Below are positions 2,503-43,262 of a stretch of 64,000 bases of DNA, in pieces. The position numbers were made by a program, and so were the translations under genes. Location of the stretch: positions 28,644,001 through 28,708,000 of the forward strand of contig OZ024758.1 in NCBI GenBank assembly GCA_964016885.1, in the 5' to 3' direction. This DNA is from Eledone cirrhosa (Eukaryota). Positions within the stretch are counted from its first letter, which is position 1, and each line of letters opens with the position of its first letter. The notes below the pieces were generated by a model. The model ran no database searches and was not told the DNA's origin. It worked only from the letters and a program-made list of their open reading frames with translations.

Positions 2503-2878
2503 AGAGATTACAATAATCAAAGTTCAGTTTAAATCATTTATTTGCTCACAATTGTTTCCTCCAAACCGAGATTTGGATTCTTCGGAGCAACTATTTAGTG
2601 ATCTATAACATACTTGACCTCCTTTTCAACACAAGAGATATATAAAATATATGCACATATTGATCCACAGTGGGATGACATCCATCAAAATTTTGATGGA
2701 TGTCATCCCACTGTGGATCAATATGTGCATATGTTTTATATGTCTCTTGTGTTGAAAAGGAGGTCAAGTATGTTATAGATCACTAAATAGTTGCTCCGAA
2801 GAATCCAAATCTCGGTTTGGAGGAAACAATTGTGAGCAAATAAATGATTTAAACTGAAATTTGATTATTGTAATCTCT
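2503..2878. repeat. Near-perfect 376-bp palindrome (188-bp arms, no spacer)
   Basis: Centre TCCATCAAAA|TTTTGATGGA at 2690/2691. The arms are reverse complements with about 3 mismatches by eye. Confidence 0.95.
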
Positions 2879-6600: not shown

Positions 6601-8078
6601 TCATCATCATCATCATCATCAACGTTTAACGTCCGTGTTCCATGCTTGCATGGGTTTGGACGGGGGTAGTCCCACTTGAGGCAAGAGTGATTGTCTTGCT
6701 CGCATAGGACTGTCTGGCAGGTTTTCTACAGTTGGATGCCCTTCCTAACACCAACCACATTTACAGTGTGGGTCTGGGAGGTTTTTACCGTGTTGCCTAC
6801 ACGGCCACATTACAGCGTGGACTGTGTTTTTTTATCATGACACCTACACGATCTCATTTGTTTCGGCCTGGATGGCGCGGCACCAACATAACTTTACATA
6901 GAACGGGGTGGTGTGGATGAGGTGGGGTGGGGGTGGTGGGACGGGGTGTATTTTGTTAGAGATGCCTACTGGCTGGAGTAGGTTTTACTATATATTTAGG
7001 TAAGGCGGGTCTTCTCTGTTACTGAGTACCGCCAAAGGTCTCGGTCTAGTGACATTGTCTTGGAGAGGTGTAAGTGTGTGATGTCGGAGTTTATCAGCTC
7101 GTCCCAGGTTTTTCTAGGTCTGCCTATTCCGTGACTACCGTCTATCTTTATTGCCCTGCACTTTGTTATACAGCTATCGACTTTCATGCGCATCACGTGT
7201 CCATACAAACGTAGCCTTCTCTCGAGTAAACAACATCTGATCCCTCTTATCTCTAATTTTTTCCTTAGTTCGTTTATGCTTTGCCGTTCACGTATATTAC
7301 TGTTACACATCCAGCGGAGCATGCAAGCTTCGTTCCTCTCTAGTCTGCGTATATCCTCTGCACACAATGCCCAGGTCTCACTGCCATGCAACATTGCTGT
7401 TCGTATGCAGGCATCGTACAACCTGCCTTTCATTTTTAGGGAGAACCCTTTAGCAGCTAATAGTGGTATAAGCTCTCTGAACTTTTTCCAACCAGTTCTG
7501 ACTCTAGCTACAGTACTTTCAGAGCACCCTCCCCCACTGCTGATTTTATCGCCCAGGTAACGGAAGCTGTCCACTATTTCTATAGAACCCTCTGCGCAAT
7601 TGAAAGAGCTAGTATTTTGTGGGCACTTGCTGCTACTTATTGCACCAGAACACCGGCCACATGTAAAATCTATGTTCTTAGTTAGCTTACCTGTGATCCC
7701 ACTACATCTTTTATGCACCCATACTTTGCATTTAGGACATAAAATGGAGTTTCTACCTACGCCTTTCCTACACACCGAGCACGACCATTTCCCAGAAGGG
7801 ACTGCCGCCTTGTTTTCTTTCCTACAAACTAGAACTTTGGTCTTAGCCAGGTTAATTTTAAGTCCTTTTGACTCTAGGCCGTGCTTCCATGTTTGGAATT
7901 TCTTCTCTAGCTCGGCCATTGATTCCGCTATGAGTGTCAGGTCGTCTGCGTATAGGAGTTCCCATGGGCAGCCTGTCTTGAACTCCTCTGTTATAGCCTG
8001 AAGGGCAATAATAAATAGTAGGGGGCTGAGAACAGAGCCCTGATGGACGCCAACTTTTACGCTAAACTCTTCACTATA
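6601..8078 (-). mobile_element. 5'-truncated RTE-clade LINE (RT C-terminal half, 3' UTR and (ATG)n tail)
   Basis: Open frame 6996-~8078 with GVHQGSVLSPLLF, YADD, a Cys/His cluster (CSVC...CPKC..WVHKRC...CGRC), FRYLG, LHGSETW, LYGHVMRM and GRPRKTW. The 3' UTR ends in GGACGTTAAACGTT(GAT)n. Confidence 0.93.
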
Positions 8079-8622
8079 TTTTACAAATATAAAATACAAT
8101 TGTTTAACCAATAAGGAGATCATTATAAATCAACTGCAAATACAAATATAAATTCTGAACTTGTCGGTGAAGGTGGAGAGCTGGGATTAGGAGTTGAACA
8201 TTCAGCATGCTGGTTAAATATTAAAGGTCTAACATAATGTCTCTACATAATCAAATCATCTGGGTCACCAATTTTATTAACATAATGTGCAGTGGCATTT
8301 TGCAAAATTGTTGTCAGAAAGTTAGTTATTTTTGTCAGAAAATTATGAGTCTGCATCCCCAAAAATGATAGCCACAATACACTTATGATTGTGTTTAATA
8401 ATAGTGTAACAATCAAGATTAAGAAATACAATCATAATTATGAAGCCATTATTAGACTGTTAATTAGCACTATCAGTTGCAGTTAAATGTGGAGAGCTCA
8501 GTAAAATAGCATTTACTATAATGTTGATCAGACAGTGCAGTTTTTGGTGTCAGAAAACTAAACATGGGAAGCATTGTAAACTGTGTCTAAAGTACTCCCT
8601 ACTGTAACTGTGTAATGTTTAA

Positions 8623-14488: not shown

Positions 14489-14504
14489 TCTTAGTAAAAC
14501 TTAC

Positions 14505-14585
14505 CCGGGACATTTGTTCCACTAAGTGAAGTCTACCATCGAGTTCTCGACGTACTTGTGCTGCTTGTTCATCAGCATTATCAAG
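14505..14585 (-). CDS. CADPS: CADPS second coding exon (81 nt, LDNADEQAAQVRRELDGRLHLVEQMSR)
   Basis: Read manually from the minus strand: pyrimidine-rich acceptor ...TTTGATTTATAG|CTTGATAAT and donor CGG|GTAAGT. The peptide continues the CAPS sequence directly after ACQ (LDNxDEQAAQxRRELDGRL). Phase 0/0. Confidence 0.95.
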
Positions 14586-15113: not shown

Positions 15114-15514
15114 TATATAGTTATTCATTGAGATTGATCTATTTTCTTATCAAAAATATATTTTGATACCACATTTGTGGTGCTTTATTTTCTAATTTCC
15201 ATCTAACAAACCCCTAAATTGCAATTTTATCTACAGAACCAGATCTTATGTATTTTACTTAAGGTAAGCTCTTTGGTATTGTAATTATTTTAACAATAAC
15301 TATCAGTGGAAAACTCCAGCACCCCTTTGTAGTGGGATGTGATTGAGTATGTGGGTCTTCTCCGATGATTTTTCTCTTTTTTTAATTTTTTTTATGTTTT
15401 ATATATATTGTATATACTTCGATGGAATAAACTTTTTATATAATCAGGGTCTCATATATGTAACAATGTGCATTTTAAAACTTGGTCTTAAAAATGTTTG
15501 GAAATAATAATACT

Positions 15515-16096
15515 AATAATTGTTTCTACTTTTGGCACAAGGCCAGCAATTACCCAGTACATTACTGGTACTTTATTTTATCAACCCCGTAAGGATGAAA
15601 GGCAAAGTTAACCTCGGCGGGATTTGAACTCAGACCATAAAGGGTCGTAACTATGCTAGAAAGCATGGCGACCGACCCTCTACCAATACTGCCAAATCAC
15701 TGCCCTTAATAATAATTGTTTCTACTTTTGGCACAAGGCCAGCAATTATCTCAGTGTATTACTGGTACTTTATTTTATCGACCCCATAAGGATGAAAGGC
15801 AAAGTTAACCTCGGCAGGATTTGAACTCAGACCATAAAGGGCCATAACTCTTTGTTGCAAAGCATGGCGTCCGACCCTCCACCGATACTACCAATCCAAA
15901 TACTAATAATAATTGTTTCTACTTTAGGCACAAGGCCAGCAATTACCCAGTGCATTACTGGTACTTTATTTTATCGACCCCGTAAGGATGAAAGGCAAAG
16001 TTAACCTCGGCAGGATTTGAACTCAGATCGTAAAGGGACGTAACTATGCTGGAAAGCATGGCGTCCAACCCTCCACCGATACTGCCAATCCACCGC
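15515..16096 (-). mobile_element. Three head-to-tail copies of SINE family B
   Basis: Units at about 15515-15705, 15708-15898 and 15905-16096, each starting AATAATTGTTTCTACTTT on the plus strand. Confidence 0.92.
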
Positions 16097-16129
16097 TAAT
16101 AATAATATACATTTAATATCATTAGTTGA

Positions 16130-21901: not shown

Positions 21902-22184
21902 TATATATCAAACAAATAGTAGAAAGGAAAAAGATTTTTTCAGTAGAAAATGTTGAAGAGATCTTTTCAGTGAAATATCAAAACAATTTATTTACAATAC
22001 CAGTTTCAGCATTATATGCATTGTCAATTTCAGATATGCAGAATATTGTTAAGTTGCATATTTGTACAAATAGTGATAATAATAATAATTCTTTCTAGTA
22101 TAGGCACAAGGCCAGTAATTTGGGGCGAGGGGAAAGTCGATTAAATCGACCCCAGTGCGTTACTGGTGCTTTGATTTTATCTAC

Positions 22185-22525
22185 CACATCAAGACGTAAA
22201 TTATCCGCATATTGTTTGTACTATCCATTAGGTTATGTGGGCTGTAATACATTATGCCCTAATGGATAGTACGAACAATACTTTACGCCTTGATATGGTA
22301 GTTCTCATCGCTCCACATAACAACATATTATCTTCGCCTTTTTCCGTTCATTGCCTGAGAACGTCTTCACAAACCAAAGTATCGTCTTCCTGTTTTCCTT
22401 CAGTCGTAACGTTTTTAGAAATATTTACTTCTGCGTTCACAGATTGATTTTTTTAGTTTCAGAAGATCCCGTTAAGGGTGAAAGCAGCGATCGATTCTTT
22501 GCTTAAACTTTAATCTGTTATTTTT
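22185..22525 (+). mobile_element. (TA)n-adjacent repeat with hammerhead-like 3' motif (Penelope-like/retrozyme-like), copy 1
   Basis: About 200 bp shared with 29160-29375. Ends in a type-I hammerhead-like fold at 22439-22518. Confidence 0.55.
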
Positions 22526-22534
22526 TTATATATA

Positions 22535-23192
22535 TCATCATCATCATCACCGTTTTACGTCCGTTCTTCCACGCTAGCATGGGTTAGATGGGTTGTCCTG
22601 TTGTGGGCAGTGTCTGGTCGGCTGACCATGCCTTGCTCATACAGGAACTGATCTGGCTTGATTTCTACAGCTGGATGCCCTTCCTAACACCAACCTCATT
22701 TACAGTGAGTGCTGGGTGCTTTTTCGTGGCGCCTACACATCCACTTTACAGTGTGGGCTGGGTGCTTTTTTTGCCGTGGCACCTCCACGACCACCTTGCG
22801 GTGGGGGGGGGGGGCATATTGTTTATATGCTTCAGCATGTACCCATGGGAAGTCGGGTACCCTGTATTACTGCGTGACGCCAGAAGTCACGGTCGTGTGT
22901 CATTGACTTTGAGAGGTGTAGTTGGGTAAGGTCGGCTTTTATCACCTCATCCCAAGTCATCTTGGGTCTCCCCACTCCGCGGTTTCCATCAACTTCTAGT
23001 GCTCTGCACCTTTTTATGCAGCTGTCATCCTTCATACGCATCACATGTCCATACCAGCGTAACCGCCTCTCCTGCACGCAGCATTTGATTCCTCTTATGC
23101 TCAGTCTCTCTCTCAATTCCTTTATGCTTTGTCGTTCACGTATATTACTGTTACACATCCATCGGAGCATGCAGGCTTCGTTTCTCTCTAAT
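22535..23192 (-). mobile_element. RTE LINE 3' fragment (same family as 6601-8078)
   Basis: LRWMCNSNIRERQSI...RLRWYGHVMRM...GRPKMTWDE plus 3' UTR and (ATG)n tail. Confidence 0.9.
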
Positions 23193-23747
23193 CTACATAT
23201 ATATATATATATATATAAGGAACATTGTCTTTTGTATGGTGTAATGATTCGTTGTATTTTATGTTCTCTGCTATTCTTAGATAGTGCTACTTTAACTCAT
23301 TTCATTACCATATTTTTTAATGAAATACATTGTATTTGAAGCAATTAATGAAGAATTTCAAGAGCTTTATTAAAATTATTAATTATTTCATCTCTAAACC
23401 AGTATTTGTAACATAATTTAACAAAAAGTTTATATAAAGTTATGCTGAACGATTTTAATTTAAATAGCAACCTTTTAAAACAAGTGGTTTTGTTTCATAG
23501 AACCAGATGTGATTTGGGGCAGGCTGGCATCAAAAGCTTTGTTTTTTTATTTAGGAGCCAGCTTTCTGAGCCATTGATGTAGAGTTGGAGTAGTTGGTGG
23601 GAAGATGTAAGTGGGATAGCATTTGCATATGAGGCTGTGTATATTGTATATACTTGTGTGTAATGTAAATTTTTATGATCAAATTTTTAGGCAAAAAATA
23701 GGTGGAGGGCTTTTATGAATTTTCTAAAATAATGACTGAAAGAATAT

Positions 23748-28735: not shown

Positions 28736-28899
28736 AATAATTTATTTTAGTCAGTGTATCTGTGTACTGCATTAATAAGTAAGTGAGAACAAAGTACCAA
28801 TTTAGCATCTTGTACATGTTTTCCTGCTTGGTACGGGTATGTTCTTTGTAGAAATATTCAGATGTTGTTTCTGCATGTTGAATATAAGTCAATAGAGTG

Positions 28900-29375
28900 C
28901 TCAACCGAGGGAGCCAAATAGTAATAATAATAAATTTGAAGACTAAAATCCAAAGAGGGCTCGATAAGGATAAATATATATCAAATATATAAGAACCATA
29001 GAGCAAATATTTGTTCTCCACGCTCCACATATGACGTATTATCTTCGTTTTTTTCGTTCATTGCCAGAGAACGTCTCTATGAATCACCTAAGAGAACATT
29101 AGTCTACGACCTCTTTTATACCATAAACGTGGTTCTGTCTTTGCGCATATTTGTTTTTCACCGCTCCTATTAACAACGTATTATATTCGTTTTTTTCCGT
29201 TTTTTGCCAGCGAACGTTTCCACGAACCAAAGTATCGTCTTCCTGTCTTCCTCCGGTTGCAACATTTTTTGAAATATCCGCATCTGCGTTTACAGATTGA
29301 CTTTGTTAGTTTCAGAAGATCCCGTTAAGGGTGAAAGCAGCGATTCTTTGCTTAAACTTTAATCTGTTATTTTAA
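28900..29375 (+). mobile_element. (TA)n-adjacent repeat with hammerhead-like 3' motif, copy 2
   Basis: Homologous to copy 1, with an internal duplicated CGTATTAT..TCGTTTTTT..TTGCCAG..AACGT block. Motif at 29292-29367. The left boundary is uncertain. Confidence 0.55.
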
Positions 29376-32018
<2,643 letters not shown>

Positions 32019-32759
32019 AAGGGAGAGAATTGGGAGTGTGTAACACTCCACTTATCAAATAGACAGTATATGGTTAGCTCAATGTCAGAGGACAGAGCCA
32101 TAGTGTGGACGAAACACTGTTAGCAATTAAAGATATACCTATGTTCTAAGCGCTCTTTGTTGTTAATTGTAAATATATATATATACATATATATATAAAT
32201 ATATATATATACATATATATATAAATATATATATATACATATATATATAAATATATATATATATGTATATATATATATTTATATATATATGTATATATAT
32301 ATGTATATATATATATGTATATATATATATTTATATATATATGTATATATATATATATGTATATATATATATTTATGTATATATATATATGTATATATAT
32401 ATATGTATAGGTAGATAGGTAAATATTGCTGATGAGTTGTAACAACAACGAAACTAGTTCAATGTTCCTTGTCTGGCTTTCTGGAGAATAGAGGGAAGGT
32501 GTTCCCTCGAAAACCAGTATGACTCTAAAAACCGGTTTGTCTGTGTGTTTACATACAGAATAGCTGGGTTGCTCACAGTAAAGCAACCAGTGAAAGACTT
32601 GTTACACCTACATATGTATACGTGTGTGTATTCATATGCACACTAGTATTTCAGTATGCATATGTAGATGTACATTTTTAACTTAATTGTTTAAGCGTCA
32701 GTCATACAAAAGTGAGTTATAAACGAAACGAAATTTAATTTCGTTTCGTTATTTGTTTT

Positions 32760-39243: not shown

Positions 39244-39430
39244 TAAAATACCTGATTATCCTTTCCAAGGATAACTTGAACCGTTAAGGTATATTATCCT
39301 TGGTCATGTCAAATATTTACAAAAAAACTTCTATTTTATCTGATGATAGCGTACCAAAATTGTTGGTACCCTTGAAATATATATAATAGAATAAATATGG
39401 TTTTATAAATATAGTTTCCATTTATTTAAT
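39239..39430 (+). mobile_element. Penelope-like terminal remnant with hammerhead core, next to (TA)n
   Basis: CTGATGA(39340-39346)-T-stem II AGCGTACCAA/TTGGTACCCT-T-GAAA(39374-39377)-TATATA, plus an upstream CCAAGGATAA/TTATCCTTGG hairpin. Confidence 0.55.
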
Positions 39431-40840: not shown

Positions 40841-42476
40841 ATTCAAAATATTAATAAATGAAGGCGTATTAATATTTTGAATAATATTAATAACTCCAGA
40901 AAACTTCCTCGTAGAGTGCTTTTAATCTATTGTAAAACTATATTCATTGAGTAATCAATGAACCATATTAATCTTTGGTCATATACTATATAAATATATA
41001 TATATATGGGGGGGGGGGCTATATGTATGTATATGTATATGTGCGAGAGAGAGAGAGAAGGAAAGAGAGAGAAAGGAGAGAAAGACAGAGAGAGAGAGAG
41101 AGATAATCAGTGATTAACTCCCTTAAATAGAGGAAAGTTTAATAAAAATCAGAAGATTAAGAAATTATTATTTAAATGAGGAGGTTTCCAATGTTTTTAG
41201 CTTTTTTTCTTTCATTCTTTCTCTCTTTTTTTCCTACTCAATACTATTAATAATAGGAAGATATGACAATTGATTGGGTCAATCGATAATGTGCGGAACA
41301 AATCGACTCAGACCTTAATATTACAATTTCTTCAATACAAAATGACCTTTTCAAAAGAATAACGAATTATATCTTGAGAAGCAGGGTATCACGTAAATGG
41401 TATTATTCAACTATACAGGTTACTTTATAGTTAGAGATACAAAAATTGTAAAGTAAATAAATAAAAATATAATTAAAAAAAAAAAAAAAATGATCAAAAG
41501 GAAGCAATTATCGATAATAATATACGAAATAGAAAAATCTTAACATCTAAAATATCGCTGGGGAAACTCAGGAGTGTCACACCCTCTAATTCTTTCTCCC
41601 CTTTCATTCCATCGATTTTATACCTTATTAAAAAATGTTATGTGTAAAATACCGCAGAAATAGCATTTTTTTAAATATATTTTATATTTTTCCCCTTCAA
41701 ATTAAAAGTAAACGACGACGGATATTATCAACTTATATACTGTATATAAGTATATAATATACGTGTAAAATATTACGCTATAAACATAAGCACAATTATA
41801 ATTCACTCATCAACTAGAACACGATCAAAGACTGCTAGGAATTTGATTTTCTCAAAAATAAAACAATTTATTTATGTATTTCATTCATATATTAATTTAG
41901 TTTTAGTTCATCAGTATATAAAAATATTTAAAATACAATTATTTTTTGGATTTCTTATGAAAACTTCAAAATCGAAAGCAATTGCAGACAAGCAATCAAT
42001 AACCCAAAGCTTTCTGTGTGTCTTTCTACCTATTCCTCATGTATATCTTTATTGATTTTAAGGGATCCAATTGTTGTGTAATAATGAGATTCAATGCGAT
42101 TGTTTCTCACTTGAATTAATAACTAACTGAATTCAATAAATGCAAAACAATCATTTAGATTGTCACATATATGCTAGAATATCATTAAATGAAAATAATT
42201 ACAGAAATTTTACTCAAGTAAAAAAACAACTCCCCCCTAAAATTAATAAAGATATACAAGAGGAACAGGTAGAAAATGATAGACTAGGGGAATGCAGCAT
42301 CAAATGTATTACCTGATCTAGCTATAAAGATATATATATTTCTGATCGTCTTCGGGTGAAAATCTCAGGTAAACTAAGGAAATCGTTCGGTAGTGAAATA
42401 AATAAACAATGGGTTACGAAAACTATGGAAATGATGTATTATTTAGGGTTTCTATGTTAGAAATATATTCACTCAC

Positions 42477-43262
42477 CTGACATGCATTGTACAATATTTG
42501 ATGCTCATACTTCTTAACAGTTAATATATTCTGGAACATATCATAAAGTTGCTCTTTACTAAGAATTAGTTCAGAGGCAGCAGTGGTCCCTCTCTGGGGA
42601 TGTTTTCGAGGATCTTCCTCACCTCGAAATATCGCATCATATTTAGTCATCCAGGAACTTAAAACGGTTTCTTTACTGAGACCATCAATCTCCGGTAAAC
42701 TCCTCACCCGTTTTTCAATATTATTCTTAAAAACCTCTCTGAAATCGTTAGCCGATGACCCTCCACTTTTGACCATTGCCAACACACGGTCACTTTTAAC
42801 GAACACTTCATAATAACTTTGTACAGCATTCGTGAAAGCTTCGTCGGCCACAATATTAGTTTCTCCGTTAAGAAAGGCGCTGAATCTATCCTTAATAGTC
42901 TGCAGCTGTTGTTTAGTGATTTTGGTTTGTCGCCTGGCCATATCTGTCGGCTGCTTGGCATTAAACGGGTAAGCAATACACCGCATGACAAAGACATAAA
43001 GCTGCAACCGTCTTTTCCTTTCTTCTTCGGATTTTGCATCATTTTTCTCAGCATCTTCACTTTTTTCCCTTTCGCTAATTAGTGATGGACTGGGGCTAGA
43101 TGGCCTTGCTTGGCTGGTATTAGGTCGACTACTCTGCACACTCAGGTTATCCCCGCTTGCTGACAAACTCCGTTCAGCACTAGGTACACTAAGAACATCA
43201 GAATTTTCATCTTCGATAGTCTCATTTTCTGATTCTTCTTCACTGGATGACGGATCAAGCAT
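42477..43262 (-). CDS. CADPS: CAPS/CADPS (calcium-dependent secretion activator, UNC-31 homolog), first coding exon (262 codons)
   Basis: Translation begins [11 protein letters not shown] and contains [55 protein letters not shown] and [17 protein letters not shown], all characteristic of the CAPS N-terminus. Homology ends at ...LYNACQ, followed by a canonical phase-0 donor CAG|GTGAGT (minus strand, intron starts at 42476). Confidence 0.97.

Follow-up and report, generated by a model that had tools for sequence, protein, structure and literature searches.

A hammerhead-fold motif with adenine at core position 4 in a Hydra-clade Penelope-like element of Eledone cirrhosa

Two copies of a (TA)n-associated repeat in the genome of Eledone cirrhosa (GenBank assembly GCA_964016885.1, contig OZ024758.1, positions 28,644,001 to 28,708,000; this whole stretch of 64,000 nucleotides is called the window below) contain a motif resembling a type-I hammerhead ribozyme whose core begins with CAGAAGA instead of CUGANGA, which raises the question of what carries such a motif and whether it can still cut. 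The function of hammerheads in Penelope-like elements (PLEs) was called unclear by Craig et al. in the accessible text of their paper (PMC8557442). A very successful family in which a core change is fixed, sharing its genome with sister families that are canonical, offers a natural comparison and puts the need for cutting by PLE hammerheads to a natural test.

Fold and core of the two motif copies

Copy 1 is located at 22439..22518 on the plus strand (C3 at 22460, A4 at 22461, predicted cut after 22504), with the distal part of stem I at 22439-22445/22512-22518 and the proximal part at 22455-22459/22505-22509, and copy 2 at 29292..29367 on the same strand (C3 at 29313, predicted cut after 29353). 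All the parts of the fold named in the initial annotation were recovered in both copies, as a three-way junction of stems I, II and III with 5+7, 3 and 5 pairs that includes A15.1-U16.1 and an H17, and both motifs parse as type-I hammerhead homologues. An Rfam search with copy 1 returned no hammerhead match at E<=10. A covariance model of 47 unrelated Hydra-type hammerheads, drawn from metagenome contigs, ranked copies 1 and 2 second and third among its 33 matches in the window, with 20.3 and 20.1 bits (rough E 0.005) and with stem III not aligned to the model. The minimum-energy fold of the motif differs from the hammerhead fold, which costs 3.4-3.9 kcal/mol; the median cost for 59 canonical Hydra-type motifs is 4.7, and 40 of these 59 require at least as much as the family copy.

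The core letters were compared with those of the clade by scanning 79 metagenome loci with position 4 left free. A hammerhead was found in 65, and 61 distinct Hydra-type motifs were counted after parses with a long stem III had been dropped. Position 4 is U in 59 of them, C in one, G in one and A in none, the single G4 motif lying inside an ORF and being probably a chance match. The U10.1-U11.1 pair, initially regarded as a novelty of this motif, is the commonest state in the clade (28/61), and U17 occurs in 8/61. Among the 26 Hydra rows listed in File S2 of Craig et al. (PMC8557442), all have U4 and G16.2, 14 have U10.1-U11.1 and 10 have U17. U10.1-U11.1 and U17 are ordinary for Hydra hammerheads, and the real departures are U4A and a flipped 15.2-16.2 pair, which is C-G in 60 of the 61 metagenome motifs and is kept here yet reversed to G15.2-C16.2, giving a CUU site. 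The rest of the core, with C3-G8, G5, G12 and A15.1-U16.1 among it, shows canonical bases in the majority sequence, and the family departs from the CUGANGA...GAAA core at A4 only. A search of mainly open-access literature for U4A in hammerheads found no report, and nothing else of relevance besides Perreault et al. 2011. Two loci (L256 and L288) carry Hydra-type hammerheads with U3-A8 covariation.

Further hammerheads and repeats occur in the window. A canonical type-I hammerhead at 32411-32482 (+; Rfam HH9, 35 bits, below the gathering score) belongs to an unrelated, young family (1,442 candidates, the best 40 at 99%) whose copies are found 467 nt apart and as inverted pairs, as expected of a non-LTR retrozyme. 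An inverted pair of hammerhead-like motifs at 2537-2595 (-) and 2786-2844 (+) has C4 and G17, and its relatives have C4 with A17 or C17 (L063, L084) or U4 (L148/L203), which suggests a recurrent U4C variant family. Another canonical-core family, with variable stem II and many relatives in the fetched loci, is represented at 39330-39395 (+). Three tandem copies of a 197-nt SINE-like unit, which we take to resemble octopus SINEs, are located at 15508-16107, and fragments of a LINE-like RT frame, presumably of RTE/CR1 type by motifs, at 6996-8129 (-) and 22832-23296 (-).

The carrying element and the state of position 4

The repeat common to both copies exceeds the motif, 22302-22535 and 29155-29384 being 84% identical. 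When compared with the natural full-length copy L066, the copy-1 repeat (22302..22535, +) is the 5'-truncated 3' end (pLTR) of a PLE of older-subfamily type with 83% identity and a short (TA)n at its end, and the copy-2 repeat (29011..29382, +) is a 5'-truncated PLE 3' end with 94% identity followed by a long (TA)n-type array. Joined to copy 1 at 22177..22301 (no strand assigned) is an inverted pair from the ORF-end region of the same family, in which 22251-22177 match the PLE ORF end at 80% and a self-inverted match covers 22181-22301. The copy-2 insertion has an inverted arm at 28816..29015 (-; 96.5% identity) composed of tail/5' UTR and PLE ORF codons 1-20, the latter matched by tblastn to residues 1-20. 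Both copies are 3' ends of a coding PLE, and not a stand-alone retrozyme. Both are also intronic and antisense to CADPS, as initially annotated, because minus-strand exons flank them: the coding exon upstream of the intron at 42474..43196 (82% identical to mollusc CADPS protein) and the next exon at 14502..14585 (tblastn E 8e-9).

A DNA search gave 684 first-look candidates, and an exact pattern was found at 29,907 genomic places; an RT fragment adjoining one copy led to the family itself, with 32,045 first-look candidates. The motif copy count is inflated because Helitron-like non-autonomous elements have captured the motif. Such elements, with the captured motif and an inverted tail, are seen at L002, L004 and L023 (and L006 and L014), and we take them to be Helitron-like from their end motifs; some contain fragments that look helicase-like by their motifs. 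Twenty near-intact loci, picked for long open frames, were fetched. In 19 of them the motif follows the stop codon in the sense orientation; the twentieth (L072) has it in the 5' pLTR only. The frame comprises 709 codons from the ATG in 17 of the 20, and the core lies 917-1131 nt past it in 14 of these 17, namely those matched by a strict expression. Upstream of the ORF, a direct or inverted pLTR holds the motif again and continues into the 5' UTR, with the AUG 158 nt after the predicted cut and a cut-to-cut unit of 3,296 nt. Copies are inserted in (TA)n, in agreement with the association noticed initially, and show partial tandem or inverted pLTRs and a tail.

The single ORF appears to encode RT plus an endonuclease of GIY-YIG type at the C terminus, the domains being read from alignment motifs (in L056/L057: RWR, DKT, CNCRNRADC as CxCx5C, CDLC as CxxC and CKH as CxH); a Pfam search of the protein found no domain, and the protein is 39-56% identical to the 120 homologues listed. 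By these motifs, on which the clade assignment rests, the element is an autonomous Hydra-clade PLE. The Penelope-type ORF that the initial annotation proposed to look for is present, and the family regarded there as uncharacterised belongs to a kind already described in the accessible part of PMC8557442. The family was active recently, as the mean difference among the 17 intact frames is 2.2% and synonymous changes are over-represented in the variants that they share (23:13 vs 107:157, p 0.011). The corresponding site is occupied by canonical hammerheads in two further Hydra families of this genome (41-44% amino-acid identity). Three further readings were rejected: antisense placement of the motif, suggested by L022, which is an inversion; a TIR/MITE origin, as the inverted arms are pieces of the pLTR and of variable length; and a closer sister family, sought with P0001 (56% identical), whose matches coincided with this family in frame length and place.

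The state of position 4 was determined in 97 unbiased family copies picked by an upstream 19-mer. All 96 that reach the core have A4, which bears out the variant noticed in the two window copies and is the fixed state of the family. The 97 copies form a young (48), a middle (29) and an old (19) group, with one unassigned, and with divergences of 0.9%, 2.8% and 4.8%, respectively. Pattern matches without A4 number 1,319, and only 164 copies combine a native stem I with a base other than A4 (T 34, C 29 and G 37 among 100 listed). A subfamily with the canonical core CUGAAGA was considered and ruled out, because fold-back junctions with position 4 at their centre account for 21 of the 23 T4 loci examined. 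A contig of low depth, from a run labelled organism B in one study, spans the core without difference.

The fold-back inversion junctions centred on position 4 were observed at L108-L137, L141, L157 and L159. They make up about 3% of copies by pattern counts and 3 of 30 in a random sample, and a 3-bp microhomology may lie behind them; U4A as the creator of this hot spot was ruled out, as the odd palindrome is independent of its centre base.

Copy ends, constraint and predicted cleavage

Copies of the family end 25-30 or 114-118 nt beyond the predicted cut. Measured from C3, alignment ends cluster at +65 to +70 (48/97) and +154 to +159 (33/97), and none of the 97 ends at the predicted cut (+40/41). 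Junctions to AT flanks are not in excess at the cut (510 vs 504 at a matched loop II site, counted in this family alone, with no canonical family as a positive control), so nothing hints at linear cut RNA serving as template; contigs from three runs whose type is not on record yielded no RNA ends. Each of the two preferred copy ends is followed by short hairpins closed by GCUC/GAGC (L066, L089 and L103, between hammerhead and start codon), and a short GAGCACTCT motif is common to these three families, only 41-44% alike in protein.

The pattern of copy ends fits in vitro work on Poseidon_Ac, where, in the accessible portion of the report, reverse transcription begins at two internal sites, the hammerhead needs protein in order to cut, and insertion is unimpaired by catalytic mutants (PMC11167929). 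By analogy with that system, read-through RNA from a partial tandem could be the template, a nick in (TA)n could be followed by internal priming of RT at two sites, and cleavage could be assisted by the protein of the element. New copies would then likely be made from uncut RNA. We further propose that slow cutting may shorten the transcript to a point 158 nt ahead of the AUG, and that weak activity may be tolerated because insertion would not need cutting. A cut-and-circularised template, as proposed in PMC4209133, would leave the same DNA pattern at the copy ends.

The core and stems are better kept than the upstream flank and loops within the family. Between old and young subfamily majorities, 0 of 51 core and stem positions differ, vs 24 of 284 in the upstream flank and loops (far upstream 16/214, near flank 6/45, loops 2/25); at the flank rate about four changes are expected in 51, with a hand-computed probability of about 0.01-0.02 that none occurs. 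In diagnostic columns the difference is 0/51 vs 10/62 (Fisher p 0.002, or 0.04 once tail and loop II are counted as well), the comparison covering one subfamily lineage with few changes and a downstream region that is equally conserved (0/36). Internal-loop positions changed between subfamilies and paired positions did not, and the catalytic G8 and G12 show no subfamily change. No compensatory change or covariation in the stems was found among family copies, and strong stem covariation was found among clade relatives, which had been picked by a pairing scan. The absence of core and stem differences suggests that the motif stayed constrained after U4A, constraint on sequence and on structure being inseparable here.

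In our preferred reading, to which we give even weight, the pLTR of an autonomous Hydra-clade PLE of some 30,000 copies carries the motif as its hammerhead; the motif is fixed for A4, likely still folds and is predicted to cut slowly and probably only with protein assistance, while uncut RNA is the likely source of new copies. Slow, probably protein-assisted cleavage is itself a prediction that we hold with equal reserve and equal belief, and A4 likely slows self-cutting. The intact core apart from A4 and the conservation of core and stems between subfamilies argue for retained cutting. Position 4 does vary in nature, as C4 recurs in three diverged loci of another repeat family of the same genome and a U4C viroid variant stays infectious (PMC3088659, accessible text). 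Against cutting, U4 is nearly invariant in the clade, as in the metagenome motifs counted above, and CUU is a weaker cleavage triplet. The lack of copy ends and of a junction excess at the cut, and of compensatory change in the family, weighs on the same side. Moreover, a mutational scan of a type III ribozyme gave low activity for all CUGA mutants other than the C3/G8 swap, according to the part of PMC9901934 available to us.

These weak CUGA mutants also speak for a motif that is catalytically dead and selected as a fold, for example as a binding or positioning signal for the RT/endonuclease, a reading that we consider unlikely but the most serious alternative. The conservation of stems and core after U4A, the lack of a junction excess at the cut and the dispensability of hammerhead catalysis for PLE insertion in vitro (PMC11167929, in part) are all compatible with such a fold. 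However, the catalytic G8 and G12 are likewise unchanged between subfamilies, the separate downstream hairpins beside the copy ends are better candidates for an RT signal, and the minimal template of Poseidon_Ac lay downstream in the accessible portion of PMC11167929. A less probable alternative still is a dead relic, in which U4A inactivated the founder, the family spread regardless and the conservation is chance over a short time. The subfamily majorities differ by only about 8%, so that few changes are expected in the motif at all, covariation is absent in the family and Helitrons carry the motif passively; the improbability of 0/51 against 24/284 and the presence of changes at internal-loop but not at paired positions speak against it. 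Finally, a non-coding retrozyme-like family cleaving as a dimer through a palindromic stem III loop, the reading towards which the initial annotation points, is very improbable, because, even though dimer cleavage was described for metazoan PLE hammerheads (PMC4209133) and a minor loop variant (15/176) forms a 6-nt palindrome with the adjacent stem base, the motif belongs to a protein-coding 3.3-kb unit, stem III has five pairs, the main loop (115/176) is not palindromic and the CGATCG palindrome, indeed present in the copy-1 loop, occurs in only 2/176 loops.

Returning to the preferred reading of a slowly cutting variant, and leaving room for the silent fold, we suggest, with slightly less than even confidence, that the family amplified in three waves with adenine in place of the U-turn uridine and with the fold kept under selection, the motif being either an active core variant or a silent protein-recognition fold. 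If the former is true, an active natural core variant has been missed by CUGANGA-based searches; if the latter, the family gives in vivo evidence for a non-catalytic job of PLE hammerheads. Some 30,000 copies of the motif in a single genome go undetected by strict descriptors and by Rfam.

Comparison with known systems

The Hydra clade consists of C-terminal EN+ PLEs (Craig et al. 2021, PMC8557442), and the present family shares with it, as far as the accessible parts of that work describe it, the single ORF with RWK-like, DKT, CxCx5C, CxxC and CxH motifs, the (TA)n targets, direct and inverted pLTRs and tail, and a 3' type-I hammerhead with frequent U10.1-U11.1 and U17. A4 and C16.2 set this family apart from the 26 listed Hydra rows, all with U4 and G16.2, and its hammerhead lies in the place usual for the clade but with a noncanonical core. 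Its 3' UTR is about 1 kb and its tail about 90 nt, vs 30-40 nt in the Hydra clade, and Hydra-1_Obim, compared by its hammerhead alone, has another hammerhead sequence. The Hydra-clade PLE hammerhead is the known part of this system, and its fixation for U4A is the new part.

Like Poseidon_Ac (Frangieh et al. 2024, PMC11167929), in the portion of the report available, the family has two copy ends, which would correspond to the two internal start sites making the tail in Poseidon_Ac, and its copies run through the hammerhead with no RNA ends found at the cut. Poseidon_Ac belongs to another clade, has a canonical core and cuts with protein, whereas cutting by this family is predicted only. Among natural core variants (Perreault et al. 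2011, PMC3088659), U10.1-U11.1 and U4C are known and some activity is kept; U4A is unnamed in the accessible text of that paper, and its variants have not gone to fixation in a retroelement amplified to high copy number. Like the present family, non-LTR retrozymes (10.64898/2026.07.22.740005, in part) are animal repeats akin to PLE pLTRs that bear a type-I hammerhead, but they are non-coding tandem units, whereas the present motif is carried by a coding element.
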